This document shows positions 21,381 to 61,924 of a stretch of DNA of 64,000 nt, piece after piece; position 1 is the stretch's first letter, and each line of letters begins with the position of its first letter. The stretch comes from Escherichia phage V18. The notes beneath the pieces are model-generated. The model did no database searches. It saw nothing but the letters and a program-made list of their open reading frames with translations, and was not told the DNA's origin. The position numbers and the translations under genes were made by a program. The DNA lies in sequence record NC_041937.1. One strand, 5' to 3'.

Positions 21381-21914
21381 ATGACTTGTGCTAGAAAACC
21401 TGATGAACAACGTAACGCCTACGATGAGTATGTGACACCGGAGTGGTGTGCAGAAGGGCTGTATGACCTTATTCCGTTCCCAGAAGACTGGACCTACTTA
21501 GAGCCTTGCAGGAATAGTGCCTCAGGTGTGTTCTACTCCCGTATGCCGTTAGGATCTGCATGGGGAGAAATCCAAGAAGGTGTTGACTATCTGAATACAG
21601 AATACAACCATGTTGACTGTATTATCACCAACCCACCATACAGTTTGGCTCGTGAGTTTGTAGACAAGGCGTTGAAAGATGCTGACGTAGTTATTATGCT
21701 TTTGCGTCTTAATTTTCTGGAAAGCAAAGCCAGATTTGAATGGTGGCTTGATAATGCACCTACCACTGTGATCACAATATCTAAGCGTCCATCTTTTCAA
21801 TCAAATGGCAGAACTGACGGGCAAGCATATGCATATTTTGTGTGGGATAAGAAAAACCGTTTAGGCTTGCCGCCATTTATGTGGTTGGCACCACCAGAGG
21901 TAGACCTGAAATGA
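21381..21914 (+). CDS. small N6-adenine DNA methyltransferase
   Basis: 177 aa; YVTPEW, LEPCRNSASG, IITNPPY motifs; paralog of 7316-7830. Confidence 0.6.
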   Translation: MTCARKPDEQRNAYDEYVTPEWCAEGLYDLIPFPEDWTYLEPCRNSASGVFYSRMPLGSAWGEIQEGVDYLNTEYNHVDCIITNPPYSLAREFVDKALKDADVVIMLLRLNFLESKARFEWWLDNAPTTVITISKRPSFQSNGRTDGQAYAYFVWDKKNRLGLPPFMWLAPPEVDLK

Positions 21915-33356: not shown

Positions 33357-33976
33357 TCAGCCAGAAATATCTGAATAGGCCCGATCTGCCCAGTCAGGAG
33401 CCAGTAGCGACTGGAGTGCTGCCAGGCGGACGGAATGGGAATACTTCTCATTCTTATAACAATTCTCAAATATCGAGGCAGTGAGAGAAATTAATAGGCC
33501 AGGCCGTTCACACAGTGGCACAACATTTGCAACCTATCCTGTGGGGATGAATGAGAATACCTATCATTGTGAGAACTATTATCATTACGGGCAATTTAAC
33601 ATAATACCCATTATGCGCACCACTGGCGATACATACAGGGATTGATACCATGAGTTACAGTTTACACACATAACAATTATATTTCTTACTATTTGTGTGG
33701 GATATAGTTAGCAGCCAATAGATTAGATATTGACCTGTAGACTTCCAACCGTCTGGACGTCTAAACGCCCACACACCAAGGGTTATACATACATCGCTGA
33801 ATGTAAACAGGGCCGCAAAAATGCTACCATACCAGTTTGTAAATTTTTCATGCAGCACTTGACAAAGAGGAGAAAAACTTGTCTGACACAATGTCACACA
33901 ATATGACACTTTACACTGGACACACTAGGCACAAAAAAAAAAAACTGCAGTGACTAGGTCACCCCTTCAGGTGTTT

Positions 33977-34171
33977 CTATGACATAATATAAAAGCAGGG
34001 CAACTATTACAAATCTAAAGTTGCCTTGCTTGTTATGTCATGATTAACTAAATACAAGGCAACTATGATCTGATTAATAGTTTGCAGACAAACTATCACG
34101 GGGGTGATGGTTACTGCTTTTATATTATGTCGCGACTCCGTCGCGCCATGCCATTCGTTTGCATAGTTGCC
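33977..34171. repeat. palindrome-flanked iteron cluster
   Basis: 19-bp inverted arms at 33980-33998 and 34114-34132; GGCAACTAT copies at 33999, 34048, 34087 (variant) and inverted at 34017, 34163. Confidence 0.55.
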
Positions 34172-37780: not shown

Positions 37781-38065
37781 TTATTTATTGATAGCGTGCA
37801 ACGGGAAAGGTACGCCAGGTTGATAGATAACTTTTACAACCTCATCGGGGCAAAAGAAATTACAAAATTCACCCCGATAAGCTTCATCTTCTTTTAATTC
37901 TTCATCAACATACTCAAAAAAGTAGTCGATGCTTGGATAATCCTGACCGGGATTATAGTCAACCATTGTCAGGACTAGTTCAAGATCGTTGCGTAGGATA
38001 TGCATACCTGCTTTTAAGTATTTTGCTTCCATTTCTACTACATCGCCAACGGTAACAATAGCCAT
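37781..38065 (-). CDS. hypothetical protein
   Basis: 94 aa; RBS TAGGAGTTAAAA; leader contains the G17 tract. Confidence 0.4.
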   Translation of the reverse strand: MAIVTVGDVVEMEAKYLKAGMHILRNDLELVLTMVDYNPGQDYPSIDYFFEYVDEELKEDEAYRGEFCNFFCPDEVVKVIYQPGVPFPLHAINK

Positions 38066-38101
38066 GATTTTAACTCCTATCTATCCGGTTAATGATTGGA
38101 G

Positions 38102-38118
38102 CCCCCCCCCCCCCCCCC
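38102..38118. repeat. homopolymeric C17 tract (G17 on the coding strand)
   Basis: 17 consecutive C residues counted in the sequence, 37-53 nt upstream of the 38065 start. Confidence 0.9.
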
Positions 38119-38298
38119 GACACCCTTTATTATCCATATTGTAGGGCTTGATGCAAGTACTTCTTTAAAAATTTTTTAAGCGCCTTGGGGGCCGCTGTAG
38201 CGCTAAAATAATAAAGGCCATGCAACCGCATAGCTTTATGTGATTATATCGCTGCAGGCCCTACCATGGGCCTTATTTTGCATCATTTGCTGGAATTA

Positions 38299-38616
38299 TT
38301 AAGAGAAAACATCGTTCACAATAGCGATCACAATGCCGCCCACCTTGTCACGGTCAACAATGCACAAATCACCATAGATCATGTGGTAGTCTGGATGATC
38401 TTTCACGGAATAGTCAATGAGTGTCTTCTTATCGTCCAGCTTACTAACTTCCATTCTCATAAAGATATGAGAATCATCAAAGGCATTATTCCGAAAAGTC
38501 ATAACCTGACCGCCAGGGCACCCGGTGATTTCCACCTCCACGCCGTCTACGATCTGACCATCAAAGAAATAAAGATTATTAGCGGGTATAAACATGATCA
38601 TTGCTCCTTTTTGCAC
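38299..38616 (-). CDS. hypothetical protein
   Basis: 105 aa; RBS AAAAGGAG. Confidence 0.4.
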   Translation of the reverse strand: MQKGAMIMFIPANNLYFFDGQIVDGVEVEITGCPGGQVMTFRNNAFDDSHIFMRMEVSKLDDKKTLIDYSVKDHPDYHMIYGDLCIVDRDKVGGIVIAIVNDVFS

Positions 38617-38886: not shown

Positions 38887-39364
38887 TTTGTTTCTCCTTT
38901 TGGAACTTTGTCTGTGTGGTGGGGAGTGTCTCCCCGTTGATTGTTATTATCCATATTCAGGACCGGATTGCAACACCCAGGGAGAAAAAATTTGAAAAGT
39001 TAGGCCCCAGGGATCGGGGCCGTTATCAGGCACGTACAGCGATAAAATACATCCCTACGCCTAACAATATTTCAAGGGCGATGATCTCCAGCCATACCAT
39101 AACACGGCGCGCCTTATCGGTGCTGGGCTTATCCTTGGGTGTCATCGTCTCCCCCTTTCCTCCTGTTAGTAGTGACGTGGTTTGTAATGGTCCCCAGGAG
39201 TATTATCACCACGCACATTACAAGAAAAATTATCTCTGTCGTTGTTCGATCCATTGTTATAAAACTCCTTAAGATCAGGCCTGAAAATAAAGCTTTCGTT
39301 ATTGAATCCATCCCGCCAGGCGGCTGGCTTCAAATCTTCACTAAATGGATTAATTAACGTGGTA

Positions 39365-40268: not shown

Positions 40269-40478
40269 TTATGAAAAAGTCATCTCACCATATTCATCGA
40301 CATCAAACCGCCAATCATTGGCCTCGATAAGGCCGATCAGGTTTTCTGCGGTGAACTGTTCTAGATAGGCCTCCTCCAGGTCTACGTAAACCTTGCGGGA
40401 TAGCTCCCGTACCGTCTCGGTGATCAGTTCTTCCAGTCTTCCACTTTGTTTTCTTGTTTGGCGGTCAGATCTAGCCAA
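40269..40478 (-). CDS. hypothetical acidic protein
   Basis: 69 aa ORF. Confidence 0.35.
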   Translation of the reverse strand: MARSDRQTRKQSGRLEELITETVRELSRKVYVDLEEAYLEQFTAENLIGLIEANDWRFDVDEYGEMTFS

Positions 40479-41225: not shown

Positions 41226-41430
41226 GGCGTTTACTCCTTTCTCTCTTTGATGTGGTTAGTATAGCTAACCTGTTGACGATGTCAAGGTTAAATAAAAAAC
41301 TGTCAATGATATTTTTAACGCCATAAAACGGCCCTAAGCGATGTTTTCAGGTTAAAGGGGGGGCGATTGCATAGGTGGGGCCTTTTTGGCGCTTACAGGG
41401 CCAACCAGGGGCGCTATTCGTAGGATAGAA

Positions 41431-58582: not shown

Positions 58583-59368
58583 TTATTCCCCTCTCCTTAC
58601 TACAGGCTCGTTTGCTAAGAATACAGCTTTTGCCCAGCCACGTGGTGTGAGGCTTCGAATCATCTTCGTTCTTGCACTCTTTCCACCAAGCTTGGCGTGT
58701 TGCATGGAATACCCGCTAACCACGTCAACTATTTGCGGGACAGGTTTTGTGTCCGGGATTATAAATCCATTACCTATCCAGCCGCAAGTTATTTTTGGAT
58801 AGGCATCACGTGGAGCTATAAATTCAGGAAACCATGGGTTTACATCATCCTCAGGTAAATACCCGCCATAGTCAGAAGGATGAAAACGGTAATCAGGTTT
58901 GCGCCACAGTGTGGACATAACACCAACAGGATTCTCTACATGCCACGGGCAATCGTAAATCTCTCCCAGCTCTTCCGCAACCCGAGCATCCTTTACAGCA
59001 TTAATTTGGATCATGGGGTCCTTAGCCAGCTTTTTCTTAAAATGTGCAGCACCCGATACCGCTAAATGCGTGCACGGAGGAAATGCAAGAATAAAGTCTG
59101 GAGCTGGATACATGCAAAAAGTTTCCTGAGGGAACCACGGGTCAATCCAATAGTCAACATAGTGAATGTTGGGATGATCGGTTATCACCTCTGCATAACT
59201 GCCGTGATCAGCACCTTCTGCGTTAAAGCACAGGCACAGATATCCAGCTTTTGCCCAGTCAATGACTGCACCACCAGACCCGTCAAATAGACTCCACACA
59301 ACACCTTTGTGGTAGTGTTCTTTGTAGATAAATTTCAATTTGCTGTCTCCTAATGCAAAAAGCCCCAC
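58583..59368 (-). CDS. putative DNA cytosine-5 methyltransferase-like protein
   Basis: 261 aa; SLFDGSGG (motif I-like), FPPCTH (PC motif), HVENPVG (ENV motif). Confidence 0.5.
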   Translation of the reverse strand: MGLFALGDSKLKFIYKEHYHKGVVWSLFDGSGGAVIDWAKAGYLCLCFNAEGADHGSYAEVITDHPNIHYVDYWIDPWFPQETFCMYPAPDFILAFPPCTHLAVSGAAHFKKKLAKDPMIQINAVKDARVAEELGEIYDCPWHVENPVGVMSTLWRKPDYRFHPSDYGGYLPEDDVNPWFPEFIAPRDAYPKITCGWIGNGFIIPDTKPVPQIVDVVSGYSMQHAKLGGKSARTKMIRSLTPRGWAKAVFLANEPVVRRGE

Positions 59369-59389: not shown

Positions 59390-59872
59390 TTAAACCCGGA
59401 TACCTATTGTATACTCGGTGGATACCAATGTCAAATCTAAATTTAAAATTTCTTGCATCTCATAATATGCGTCCAGGGTGAGATACATTTCCCCATCCTT
59501 TTCTACATACTTGTCCAAGTGCTTGAGGCATTTCGGATAACTATCAAGTGCAGCTTTCAGACACTCAAATTCTGTGCTGTTGATGAATCCTTCCATCTTA
59601 GCTACCCGTTCTGGAGTAACGATAGCACTGTAGTGAGATTTAGCTTCCTGAATGCAATGGGTCCAAGCATCAACTTTCTCTTCAAAAAGTCCGAAGAACT
59701 TCTTTTTGGTGAGCTTCAGATTCTTTAAGTGCTTAAGCACTCGGTTGCCGATCACAGCTACATCACGAAACTTAAGGATCACTTTGTCGATATCCTCGCG
59801 GCCTATTTTCACAAAGCAAGCCTCGCACATTTCAGGAGTGGCATAGCCTACTTTCCACATAAAATCTGACAT
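59390..59872 (-). CDS. hypothetical protein
   Basis: 160 aa ORF. Confidence 0.4.
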   Translation of the reverse strand: MSDFMWKVGYATPEMCEACFVKIGREDIDKVILKFRDVAVIGNRVLKHLKNLKLTKKKFFGLFEEKVDAWTHCIQEAKSHYSAIVTPERVAKMEGFINSTEFECLKAALDSYPKCLKHLDKYVEKDGEMYLTLDAYYEMQEILNLDLTLVSTEYTIGIRV

Positions 59873-60280: not shown

Positions 60281-60624
60281 CAGAAACCTCCCACTTCTTC
60301 AGCAAATGCAGCTGCTGTCGTCGCTGCATCCAGATAGGACTCTAGTTCACGGGATGCACGTTTGTAAATTGAGTGGCGCATATCGTTTGGCAGTTGGTGG
60401 AAGTCCACCTCTTCACCGTTGTGGTAAACATGCACATCGGTAATTTGTCTAAATCCGTAATAGTCAACATCAGAATCACGGCACTCTGGGTCTGGCAACT
60501 GGACAACTGCCTGAGCTTCCACAGTGAACATATCGTCAAGTTCGAAATCGATTTCAAAAGTGTATGGTTTATAACGTTTCATCATTTGATTGTGCTCTTT
60601 ATTGATCAGACTTATCTTTCGCAA
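60280..60624 (-). CDS. hypothetical protein
   Basis: 114 aa ORF. Confidence 0.4.
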   Translation of the reverse strand: MRKISLINKEHNQMMKRYKPYTFEIDFELDDMFTVEAQAVVQLPDPECRDSDVDYYGFRQITDVHVYHNGEEVDFHQLPNDMRHSIYKRASRELESYLDAATTAAAFAEEVGGF

Positions 60625-61924
60625 TTAAGGTCGGGGTAAGTTTGTAATAACGGAAGCCACCACCACCTTTCCAGTTTACAGACTTAGAAATACCACCTTG
60701 ATCTTCGCCATCGATCACTTTTTCCAAGCGCGGAATAATATGGGTATGACAATGATCACCTAGCTCGATTGAGATCCAACGTCTTTTCATCTTGTGAGCT
60801 ACAGCAGCAGTAGTTCCCGAACCACCGAATGAATCCAATACCAAATCGCCTTCTCGCGTACACATTTCTAAAATCCGCTTCAAAAGAGCTTCTGGTTTTT
60901 TCCCATTTTTGAAACTGACGCCGCCTTCATTTGCTATTCCATTCCAACTAATGTCTGTCCAAACATCAGTTATTAGTTCCGCAGGTTGCATCTCACCGTC
61001 AATTTCCAAAAGTCTATTGGAGTAAAAGACCATTTGCCTACCATTTGCGATATAAAATCCTTCAACATCCTCATTTGGATGTACATAAACCTTATCCCTA
61101 TCTTTCTTTGACTTCTCGATAGTTTCTTTTCTCTTTATTTTAGCACCACCACCAATTGCAACAGATTGAAATACACGTTCTGCATTATCAGTTGCGAATT
61201 GTGCTAATTCATCATCGAATGTATCAGGCAGTTTTTTCTTGGCTTCTTTTGCATCTTTATAACCATTGGCCTTTGCAAACGCATCGGCAATACCGCACCA
61301 CGTCCAATTTTTATAATGGTCATCCGGGTTTAATAGGTATTTGTTATATCCTGTATCATACCCTTTAGGTATATAGATTTTGTTAAGCGGTTTCTGGGTG
61401 CGATCTTTTGCATATACAAGCAAAAAGTTTGCTGTGGAGAAAACTGTGGCTCCTGTTGCCTTAAATCCCGAAGGGGAATTTGTGGTCATCGATATGGTAT
61501 TTAACTGATTTGCACGACCAAAAATCTCGTCCATCAAAACTTTTAAATACGCCATTTCGCAATCATCTAAGTGAACGAATATTACCCCATCATCACTTAG
61601 AAGATTACGAATTATTTCTAACCTATCCCTCATTAAGCCCAGCCAAATGGAATGCTCCAGGCTATCATCGTAGTGCTCAAAAGCCCTTCCGGTATTGAAT
61701 GGTGGGTCTATGTAAACACACTTCACTTTGCCTGCATACTCTTGCTCTAGCGCCTTCAATGCTAATAAGTTATCTCCAAAAATCAGTTTATTATCAAAAA
61801 TATCGTTTTCGGTCACTTTCTGGCTGTGGTAAGACTTGCTAGAATCCTCTAACAAAATGTGCGGCTCTAACTTTTTGCGCTCGTTTTTACCTATCCAGGT
61901 AAGTTCTAATTTGGTTTTGCTCAT
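60599..61924 (-). CDS. DNA N6-adenine/N4-cytosine methyltransferase, type III Mod / ParB-methylase-like
   Basis: 441 aa; YIDPPFNTG (DPPF motif) upstream of LDSFGGSGTT (SAM-binding); N-terminal ELTWIGK. Confidence 0.8.
   Translation of the reverse strand: MSKTKLELTWIGKNERKKLEPHILLEDSSKSYHSQKVTENDIFDNKLIFGDNLLALKALEQEYAGKVKCVYIDPPFNTGRAFEHYDDSLEHSIWLGLMRDRLEIIRNLLSDDGVIFVHLDDCEMAYLKVLMDEIFGRANQLNTISMTTNSPSGFKATGATVFSTANFLLVYAKDRTQKPLNKIYIPKGYDTGYNKYLLNPDDHYKNWTWCGIADAFAKANGYKDAKEAKKKLPDTFDDELAQFATDNAERVFQSVAIGGGAKIKRKETIEKSKKDRDKVYVHPNEDVEGFYIANGRQMVFYSNRLLEIDGEMQPAELITDVWTDISWNGIANEGGVSFKNGKKPEALLKRILEMCTREGDLVLDSFGGSGTTAAVAHKMKRRWISIELGDHCHTHIIPRLEKVIDGEDQGGISKSVNWKGGGGFRYYKLTPTLIAKDKSDQ

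Follow-up and report, generated by a model that had tools for sequence, protein, structure and literature searches.

A private G17 run at a length-variable homopolymer in an early-gene leader of an rV5-like coliphage

We analyzed a 64-kb stretch of phage DNA (hereafter the window) that carries 17 consecutive C on its + strand, that is, G17 on the − strand, which is coding here, in the leader of a small gene of the gp176 family. We favor, with a probability of roughly 55%, that G17 is a real expansion at a G homopolymer that is naturally hypermutable in rV5-like coliphages. This reading is based on the length polymorphism of the homologous run in relatives, on natural intermediates found among them, and on the lack of a bias toward lengthening G runs in the assembly.

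Results

Position of the run and identity of the phage

As the initial annotation had described, direct reading of the window gave 17 C at 38102-38118, bordered on the + strand by a G at 38101 and a G at 38119. The distance it reported, 37-53 nt upstream of gene 37781-38065, also agrees with an ATG at 38065, with 36 nt between the end of G17 and this start codon. C17/G17 is the sole homopolymer longer than 12 nt across the 64 kb, the next-longest being A12 at 33933-33944, then A8 and G7. Considering the base composition of the window (C, 21.0%; G, 22.0%), about 5e-7 G/C runs of at least 17 nt were expected on one strand of 64 kb; therefore, the run is not a chance occurrence.

By its sequence matches, the window belongs to Vequintavirus and is an rV5-like E. 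coli myovirus, with a best identity of about 95% in the INPHARED phage collection. Neither that collection nor IMG/VR nor the JGI metagenomes yielded the phage itself, and two of its distinctive proteins had no match on record. The RNR alpha and gp176 proteins are common to other phages at only 92-98% DNA identity, and the exact 94-aa protein encoded downstream of G17 recurs in many independent assemblies. Searches for a function of this protein matched only PHROG families of unknown function, and no Pfam family scored above threshold.

We also noticed over 20 records that bear the name of Campylobacter jejuni phages (MG065635-MG065690, "Campylobacter phage" A13b, A140-A142, C12, C14, D1, and others) but match the window across the region at 92-93% identity; mislabelling or contamination is the probable cause. 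In addition, a presence/absence polymorphism was observed beside G17. An extra 116-aa gene (351 bp, VOG7213; 1374-1724 in L001) lies in many relatives at the site corresponding to ~38283-38288 of the window, between gene 38299-38616 and the upstream hairpin. Its carriers include rV5_ev147, EdH4, ime, nimi, and EmilHeitz, whereas the window lacks it, as do rV5, YN3, Gotham, and RudolfGeigy.

Predicted promoter and leader of the 94-aa gene

Read along the − strand, the region contains in order a terminator-like hairpin, the homolog of the rV5 terminator t177, an A/T-rich block, a sigma70-like promoter, AAAGGGTGTC, G17, CTCC, AGGAG, and the ATG (Table 1). As the t177 homolog ends the upstream transcript, the 94-aa gene needs a promoter of its own, and we infer that TTGCAT-N16-GATAAT plays this role. 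Its hexamers, like the A/T block, are invariant among the aligned relatives, and phage Gotham carries a PhagePromoter annotation at the homologous place. Table S4 of the rV5 paper lists the upstream terminator t177 and no promoter for gene 176; the promoters of that table are all TTGACA-type, and the MEME subset kept 10/12 consensus matches. A search of the literature for transcription start site (TSS) or transcriptome data on Vequintavirus found none.

Considering the usual distance of 6-8 nt from the −10, the TSS is predicted at ~38121-38123, and G17 would therefore lie at roughly +3/+5 to +19/+21 in the mRNA. Ten nucleotides separate the −10 from the run, and 23 nt separate the run from the Shine-Dalgarno downstream. 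The CTCC that follows it is complementary to the GGAG of the Shine-Dalgarno, with a 19-nt spacer between CTCC and AGGAG. We also observed that the t177 homolog has a private 1-nt deletion at 38234, which costs one stem pair.

Table 1. Features of the G17 leader and frameshifted genes named in the text (positions in the window).
Feature	Position	Strand	Remark
Terminator-like hairpin	38273-38256	−	Upstream of the t177 homolog
Rho-independent terminator, rV5 t177 homolog	38207..38234	−	Ends upstream transcript
A/T-rich UP-element-like block, TTAAAAAATTTTTAAAGAAG	38160..38181	−	Just 5' of the −35; putative function
Sigma70-like promoter, TTGCAT-N16-GATAAT	38129..38156	−	Predicted
−35 TTGCAT; 16-nt spacer; −10 GATAAT	38156-38151; 38134-38129	−	Read from the sequence
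AAAGGGTGTC, discriminator and first transcribed bases	38119..38128	−	Read from the sequence; TSS predicted
G17 (C17 on +)	38102..38118	−	Slot of hairpin 5' arm, loop, and part of 3' arm in relatives
CTCC, remnant of hairpin 3' arm	38098..38101	−	GCCTCC in murica-type relatives
Shine-Dalgarno AGGAG	38074..38078	−	8 nt before ATG
94-aa acidic protein, rV5 ORF176/gp176 family, phrog_12610	37781..38065	−	Function-unknown family
Adenine methyltransferase, frameshift	7684/7690
PhoH-like ATPase, frameshift	19252
207-aa gene, two frameshifts	40436, 40560
DNA primase/helicase, frameshift	58246

Alleles of the run in relatives

The site was read in 32 other genomes or contigs, namely 18 phage records, 1 IMG/VR contig, 3 metagenome contigs, and 10 ENA/Logan assemblies, the last all encoding exactly the same 94-aa protein. 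Results showed that the homologous G run is 4-9 long in these 32 relatives. In the murica-type allele, GTC-G(n)-CGGTGAGGCCTCC, n is 5 (CM1, HeinrichReichert, contig L059), 6 (EdH4, Alma, PDX, contigs L056 and L061, and also MaxBurger), 7 (rV5_ev147), 8 (nimi, ECP32, contig L058), or 9 (ime, EmilHeitz), while the rV5-type allele reads GTCA-G(4-7)-CGG-C(4-7). EdH4, nimi, and EmilHeitz show 0 differences over ~380 nt of flank, yet they carry G6, G8, and G9, respectively; the flanks of rV5_ev147 and ime are likewise identical, yet the run is G7 in one and G9 in the other. Such differences in length between phages with identical flanks indicate that the locus is genuinely slippage-prone, as had been supposed of the tract from the window. 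Moreover, assemblies that are independent and come from different countries share the same alleles, an argument for the G5-G9 variation being real.

G17 itself is private to the window: 115 phage records gave matches (best identity 96.3%), and neither they nor 14 Vequintavirus contigs from IMG/VR, metagenomes, ENA, and Logan carry it. Its immediate flanks (AAAGGGTGTC ... CTCC) are those of the murica type. Starting from the G9 version in ime and EmilHeitz (G9-C-GG-T-G-A-GG-CC), the window's allele is obtained exactly by turning C, T, and A into G and dropping one C, for a total length of 18 nt vs 19 nt. Partial intermediates occur in relatives with good assemblies: WalterGehring reads G7-TGAGG, with the CGG absorbed into the run, and MaxBurger has a T>G change in the loop.

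A second variable intergenic G run was observed at 41357-41363, being G7 in the window, G6 in RudolfGeigy, and G4 in L006 and L037.

Leader hairpin and G-quadruplex potential

A GC hairpin is found at this slot in 32/32 relatives, close to a 5' end that is itself predicted, with the G run as its 5' arm and a stem that is either GGGGGC/GCCUCC or G5/C5. Over the 22 alleles folded, the hairpins of relatives had energies of −6.5 to −13.1 kcal/mol, and with a longer 5' G run the overhang grows and the hairpin stays intact. For the window, folding gave a minimum free energy of −6.1 to −6.4 kcal/mol with z = +1.2, worse than its own shuffles, and an unpaired centroid. Folding thus predicts that the G17 allele removes the leader hairpin. 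Compared to shuffles, the hairpin of relatives at the site is only weakly favored (z = −0.6 to −1.9), and because both arms are homopolymeric and the sole pair change is G-U to G-C, covariation is uninformative. The weak z and the lack of true compensatory covariation count against our explanation of the site.

GC hairpins had also been noted in the leaders of sibling genes, and this was confirmed for two promoter-like sites of the − strand, 38973, directly followed by GGGGAG-ACA-CTCCCC (z = −2.4), and 42834, directly followed by GGGAA-AAC-TTCCC (z = −3.2). The sites at 59434 and 11196 have the same layout, a promoter-like site and then a GC stem-loop with the G-rich arm first. 5'-Terminal stem-loops stabilize bacterial and phage mRNAs, as in the ompA leader and the T7 phi10 leader. 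The sites in the window suggest that promoter-then-stem-loop is a recurring design of this genome, plausibly providing early mRNAs with stabilizing 5' stem-loops. A search with Rfam 15 covariance models assigned no family to the leader and returned two sub-threshold chance hits elsewhere.

Other hairpins of the window deserve a separate mention. At 59434-59340 (−), a consensus promoter TTGACA-N17-TACAAT (rV5 P231) is followed within ~20 nt by a very strong terminator-like hairpin, GGCCCTGCCCGAAAGGGTGGGGC, with a T run (rV5 t232, −21 kcal/mol), an arrangement that is attenuator-like. In the homolog of terminator t181, at 39003-39021 (−), each arm has one base less than its RudolfGeigy counterpart (C4/G4 vs C5/G5), which is either a compensatory natural variant or the product of two parallel homopolymer under-calls.

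The G-quadruplex potential attributed to the tract was borne out by prediction. G17 contains the minimal motif G3N1G3N1G3N1G3 (four tracts of at least three G on the same strand, separated by short loops), and when quadruplex terms are included, folding with ViennaRNA gives a predicted RNA quadruplex of three tetrads (leader at −52.7 vs −19.6 kcal/mol). The same folding predicts that the Shine-Dalgarno region is paired with the freed GCUCC.

Reliability of the assembly

We counted a 1-nt indel as private to a genome when all available relatives were alike at the site and differed from that genome. Over ~31 kb compared, the window has 23 private indels, of which 20 are deletions, and most comparators (L049, L006, L017, L037, L050, and L062-L067) have 0-3. 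In ~9.4 kb covered by at least 3 comparators, the window shows 13 (12 deletions), against 2 in RudolfGeigy, 3 in L006, 3 in L017, 1 in L037, and 7 in L022, a short and more divergent metagenome contig. In ~21.4 kb of conserved core with at least 4 comparators, it shows 10 (8 deletions), against 0-1 in each of seven genomes. Compared with RudolfGeigy, its closest relative, 34 of the 43 isolated indels of the window are deletions, and most window deletions sit in runs of 2-4 bases.

Genes are affected as well. Compared with all relatives, about 14 of 127 genes (the RudolfGeigy count) have lost their frame in the window through private single-base deletions, at sites including 2610, 7684/7690, 19252, 27634, 29960, 35781, and 39883, and further at 40436, 40560, 41705, 42507, 47069, 51709, and 58246 (Table 1). 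In 6/6 further relatives, neither the PhoH gene nor the methyltransferase gene is disrupted. This indel profile looks like that of an unpolished, deletion-biased long-read-type consensus and, considering so many single-base errors, the length and purity of G17 are not trustworthy.

The initial annotation had offered an assembly artefact as the alternative to a biological role of the tract. The true allele would then be an ordinary murica-type one (about G9 or fewer, then CGGTGAGGCC), and G17 would be a base-calling or polishing failure at a G-rich, structure-forming stretch in an error-prone assembly of long-read type. We regard this as possible, although less probable than a real expansion. 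This reading gains weight from the excess of private indels and from the frameshifts in essential genes such as the primase/helicase. The allele is also unique, and its length falls within 1 nt of the G9 allele with exactly three non-G bases replaced, as a miscall of three bases would give; these facts, like the unreliability of the assembly at single bases, speak against a real expansion. Modified DNA degrades long-read base-calling; the methyltransferases annotated in relatives, one Dcm-like and several for N6-adenine, indicate that the phage DNA is probably modified, and modification could contribute to the errors of this assembly.

A bias of the kind that would create or lengthen a G run was not seen in the assembly. 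The error profile is deletion-biased, and as deletions shorten runs, the bias by itself would not create a 17-mer. G/C runs of at least 5 are symmetric between the window and RudolfGeigy, which shows no systematic over-calling of G; errors are not enriched at CCWGG; and intermediates that absorb interruptions exist in the good assemblies of WalterGehring and MaxBurger. These points speak against the artefact reading.

Error signatures that could have been specific to this assembly were tried and rejected. A Dcm-motif signature was dropped as 14/66 CCWGG sites were altered vs ~25% expected for any 5-mer at this divergence, and control motifs gave similar values. A systematic over-calling or "purification" of G runs was dropped as well, as G/C runs of at least 5 number 38 in the window vs 41 in RudolfGeigy, and those interrupted in the other genome are 12 of the window's vs 10 of RudolfGeigy's. 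The A12 run was considered as a control of homopolymer accuracy, and its region proved too variable between relatives, with large indels. A scan of genome contigs gave unrelated matches only.

Regarding the surroundings of A12, it sits in an ORF-free, repeat-rich stretch (33880-33990) with iterated TGACAC/GTCACA-like motifs. The rV5 paper marks the equivalent stretch as a "non-coding" box, and an origin or some other cis element may be located there. Regarding the methyltransferases, phages of this group have four genes, one for a Dcm-like C5-cytosine enzyme and three for putative N6-adenine enzymes; the RudolfGeigy loci lie at 6359-7123 and 3770-5095 of L051 and at 7254-7787 and 21290-22108 of L050, and the window homologs lie at ~58595-59338, 60602-61924, 21381-21911, and 7316-8129.

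Discussion

We propose that the mRNA of the early gene of the gp176 family would open with a small GC stem-loop, whose 5' arm is the G homopolymer. Replication slippage would alter the length of the run, and as the hairpin is left intact in relatives, this variation is probably near neutral. In the phage of the window, slippage together with substitutions at the borders of the run may have removed the interruptions, converting G9-C-GG-T-G-A-GG into G17. A pure and longer run would then slip more, and G17 would represent the end state of a loss of interruptions followed by growth.

The resulting mRNA would lack its 5' stem-loop and gain a G17 able to form an RNA quadruplex, while G17 on the non-template strand near the promoter would favor the formation of R-loops and quadruplexes on the DNA. 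Promoter-proximal G-rich tracts of the non-template strand have been reported to strongly block transcription in vitro (PMC5499740, PMC3561996), and stimulation has been reported as well (PMC7341879). The most likely effect would be a changed, probably reduced, expression of the downstream gene through loss of the stem-loop, a G-quadruplex, or an R-loop. As in vitro reports describe either blockage or stimulation, the sign of this effect is uncertain. The phage would probably tolerate lower expression, given that this early gene is small and accessory.

Known contingency loci act by shifting an ORF out of frame or by altering the −35/−10 spacing. The initial annotation had also suggested that the tract could be a length-variable, phase-variable expression switch, and this suggestion is not supported in such a form: the run lies between the −10 and the Shine-Dalgarno, outside the −35/−10 spacer, and no plausible ORF crosses G17, which leaves spacing and reading frame unaffected. 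A different kind of switch would be a non-coding contingency locus, in which tract length is selected to vary and tunes the expression of the early gene, the leader toggling among the hairpin, the G-quadruplex, and an anti-Shine-Dalgarno pairing of CUCC with GGAG, with mixed populations as a form of bet-hedging. We hold this to be unlikely and the weakest of the three readings. Such a locus would fit the length polymorphism between otherwise identical relatives as well as the predicted pairing of the freed GCUCC, and G-rich non-template DNA by a promoter does change yield strongly in vitro (PMC5499740 for blockage, PMC7341879 for stimulation). Moreover, a preprint reports homopolymer contingency loci in the coliphages T2 and T4 and surveyed them in BASEL phages (PMC12633550). 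However, G5-G9 alleles keep the same predicted hairpin with similar energies, therefore most of the variation should be phenotypically silent, and rV5-type relatives get the same structure with short runs. In a further version, the spread of run lengths within a lysate would fix how much product is made, in a graded or bimodal manner, as the leader switches between a stabilizing hairpin, a G-quadruplex/R-loop block, and the anti-Shine-Dalgarno pairing, with G17 as a genuine "off-like" extreme; this appears to us more improbable still.

If the long run is real, as we favor, it would be an unusually clear case in a lytic coliphage of a homopolymer growing by loss of interruptions, located in a 5' leader and not within a gene. 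Such a run would equally provide a natural test of the effect of a promoter-proximal G tract on E. coli transcription and mRNA stability. In any case, Vequintavirus genomes reliably vary in length at this hot spot, which can serve to mark strains and is also liable to mislead assemblers, and any single-base feature of the window should be read as coming from an assembly that contains errors.

Several known systems can be compared with this site. As in the studies of R-loop and quadruplex-forming tracts (PMC5499740, PMC3561996, PMC7341879), G17 is on the non-template strand, ~10 nt past the −10, in the orientation that matters; those studies used T7 RNA polymerase and designed sequences in vitro and found effects in opposite directions, whereas the polymerase acting on this leader would be that of E. 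coli. As in the ompA and T7 phi10 leaders, relatives and sibling genes carry a GC stem-loop near the predicted 5' end, with the G-rich arm first, but in contrast to those leaders the hairpin is short, is not clearly better than shuffles, and is lost in the window, and its 5' end is predicted.

The closest comparison is with homopolymer contingency loci of bacteria, of Campylobacter phages, whose polyG tracts are reportedly the subject of a 2021 Cell Reports paper, and of T2 and T4. As in these loci, a G/C tract slips far faster than its surroundings: it is long enough to slip (about 7 nt or more), at G17 in the window and G5-G9 in murica-type relatives, and its length differs between very close relatives. 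Unlike in these loci, G17 is in a 5' leader, and a single unreliable assembly is the source of the extreme allele. As these two contingency features are shared and the placement of a switch is absent, we do not call the site a phase-variation switch; it is a hypermutable leader homopolymer that takes its place among the simple-sequence repeats of phages.
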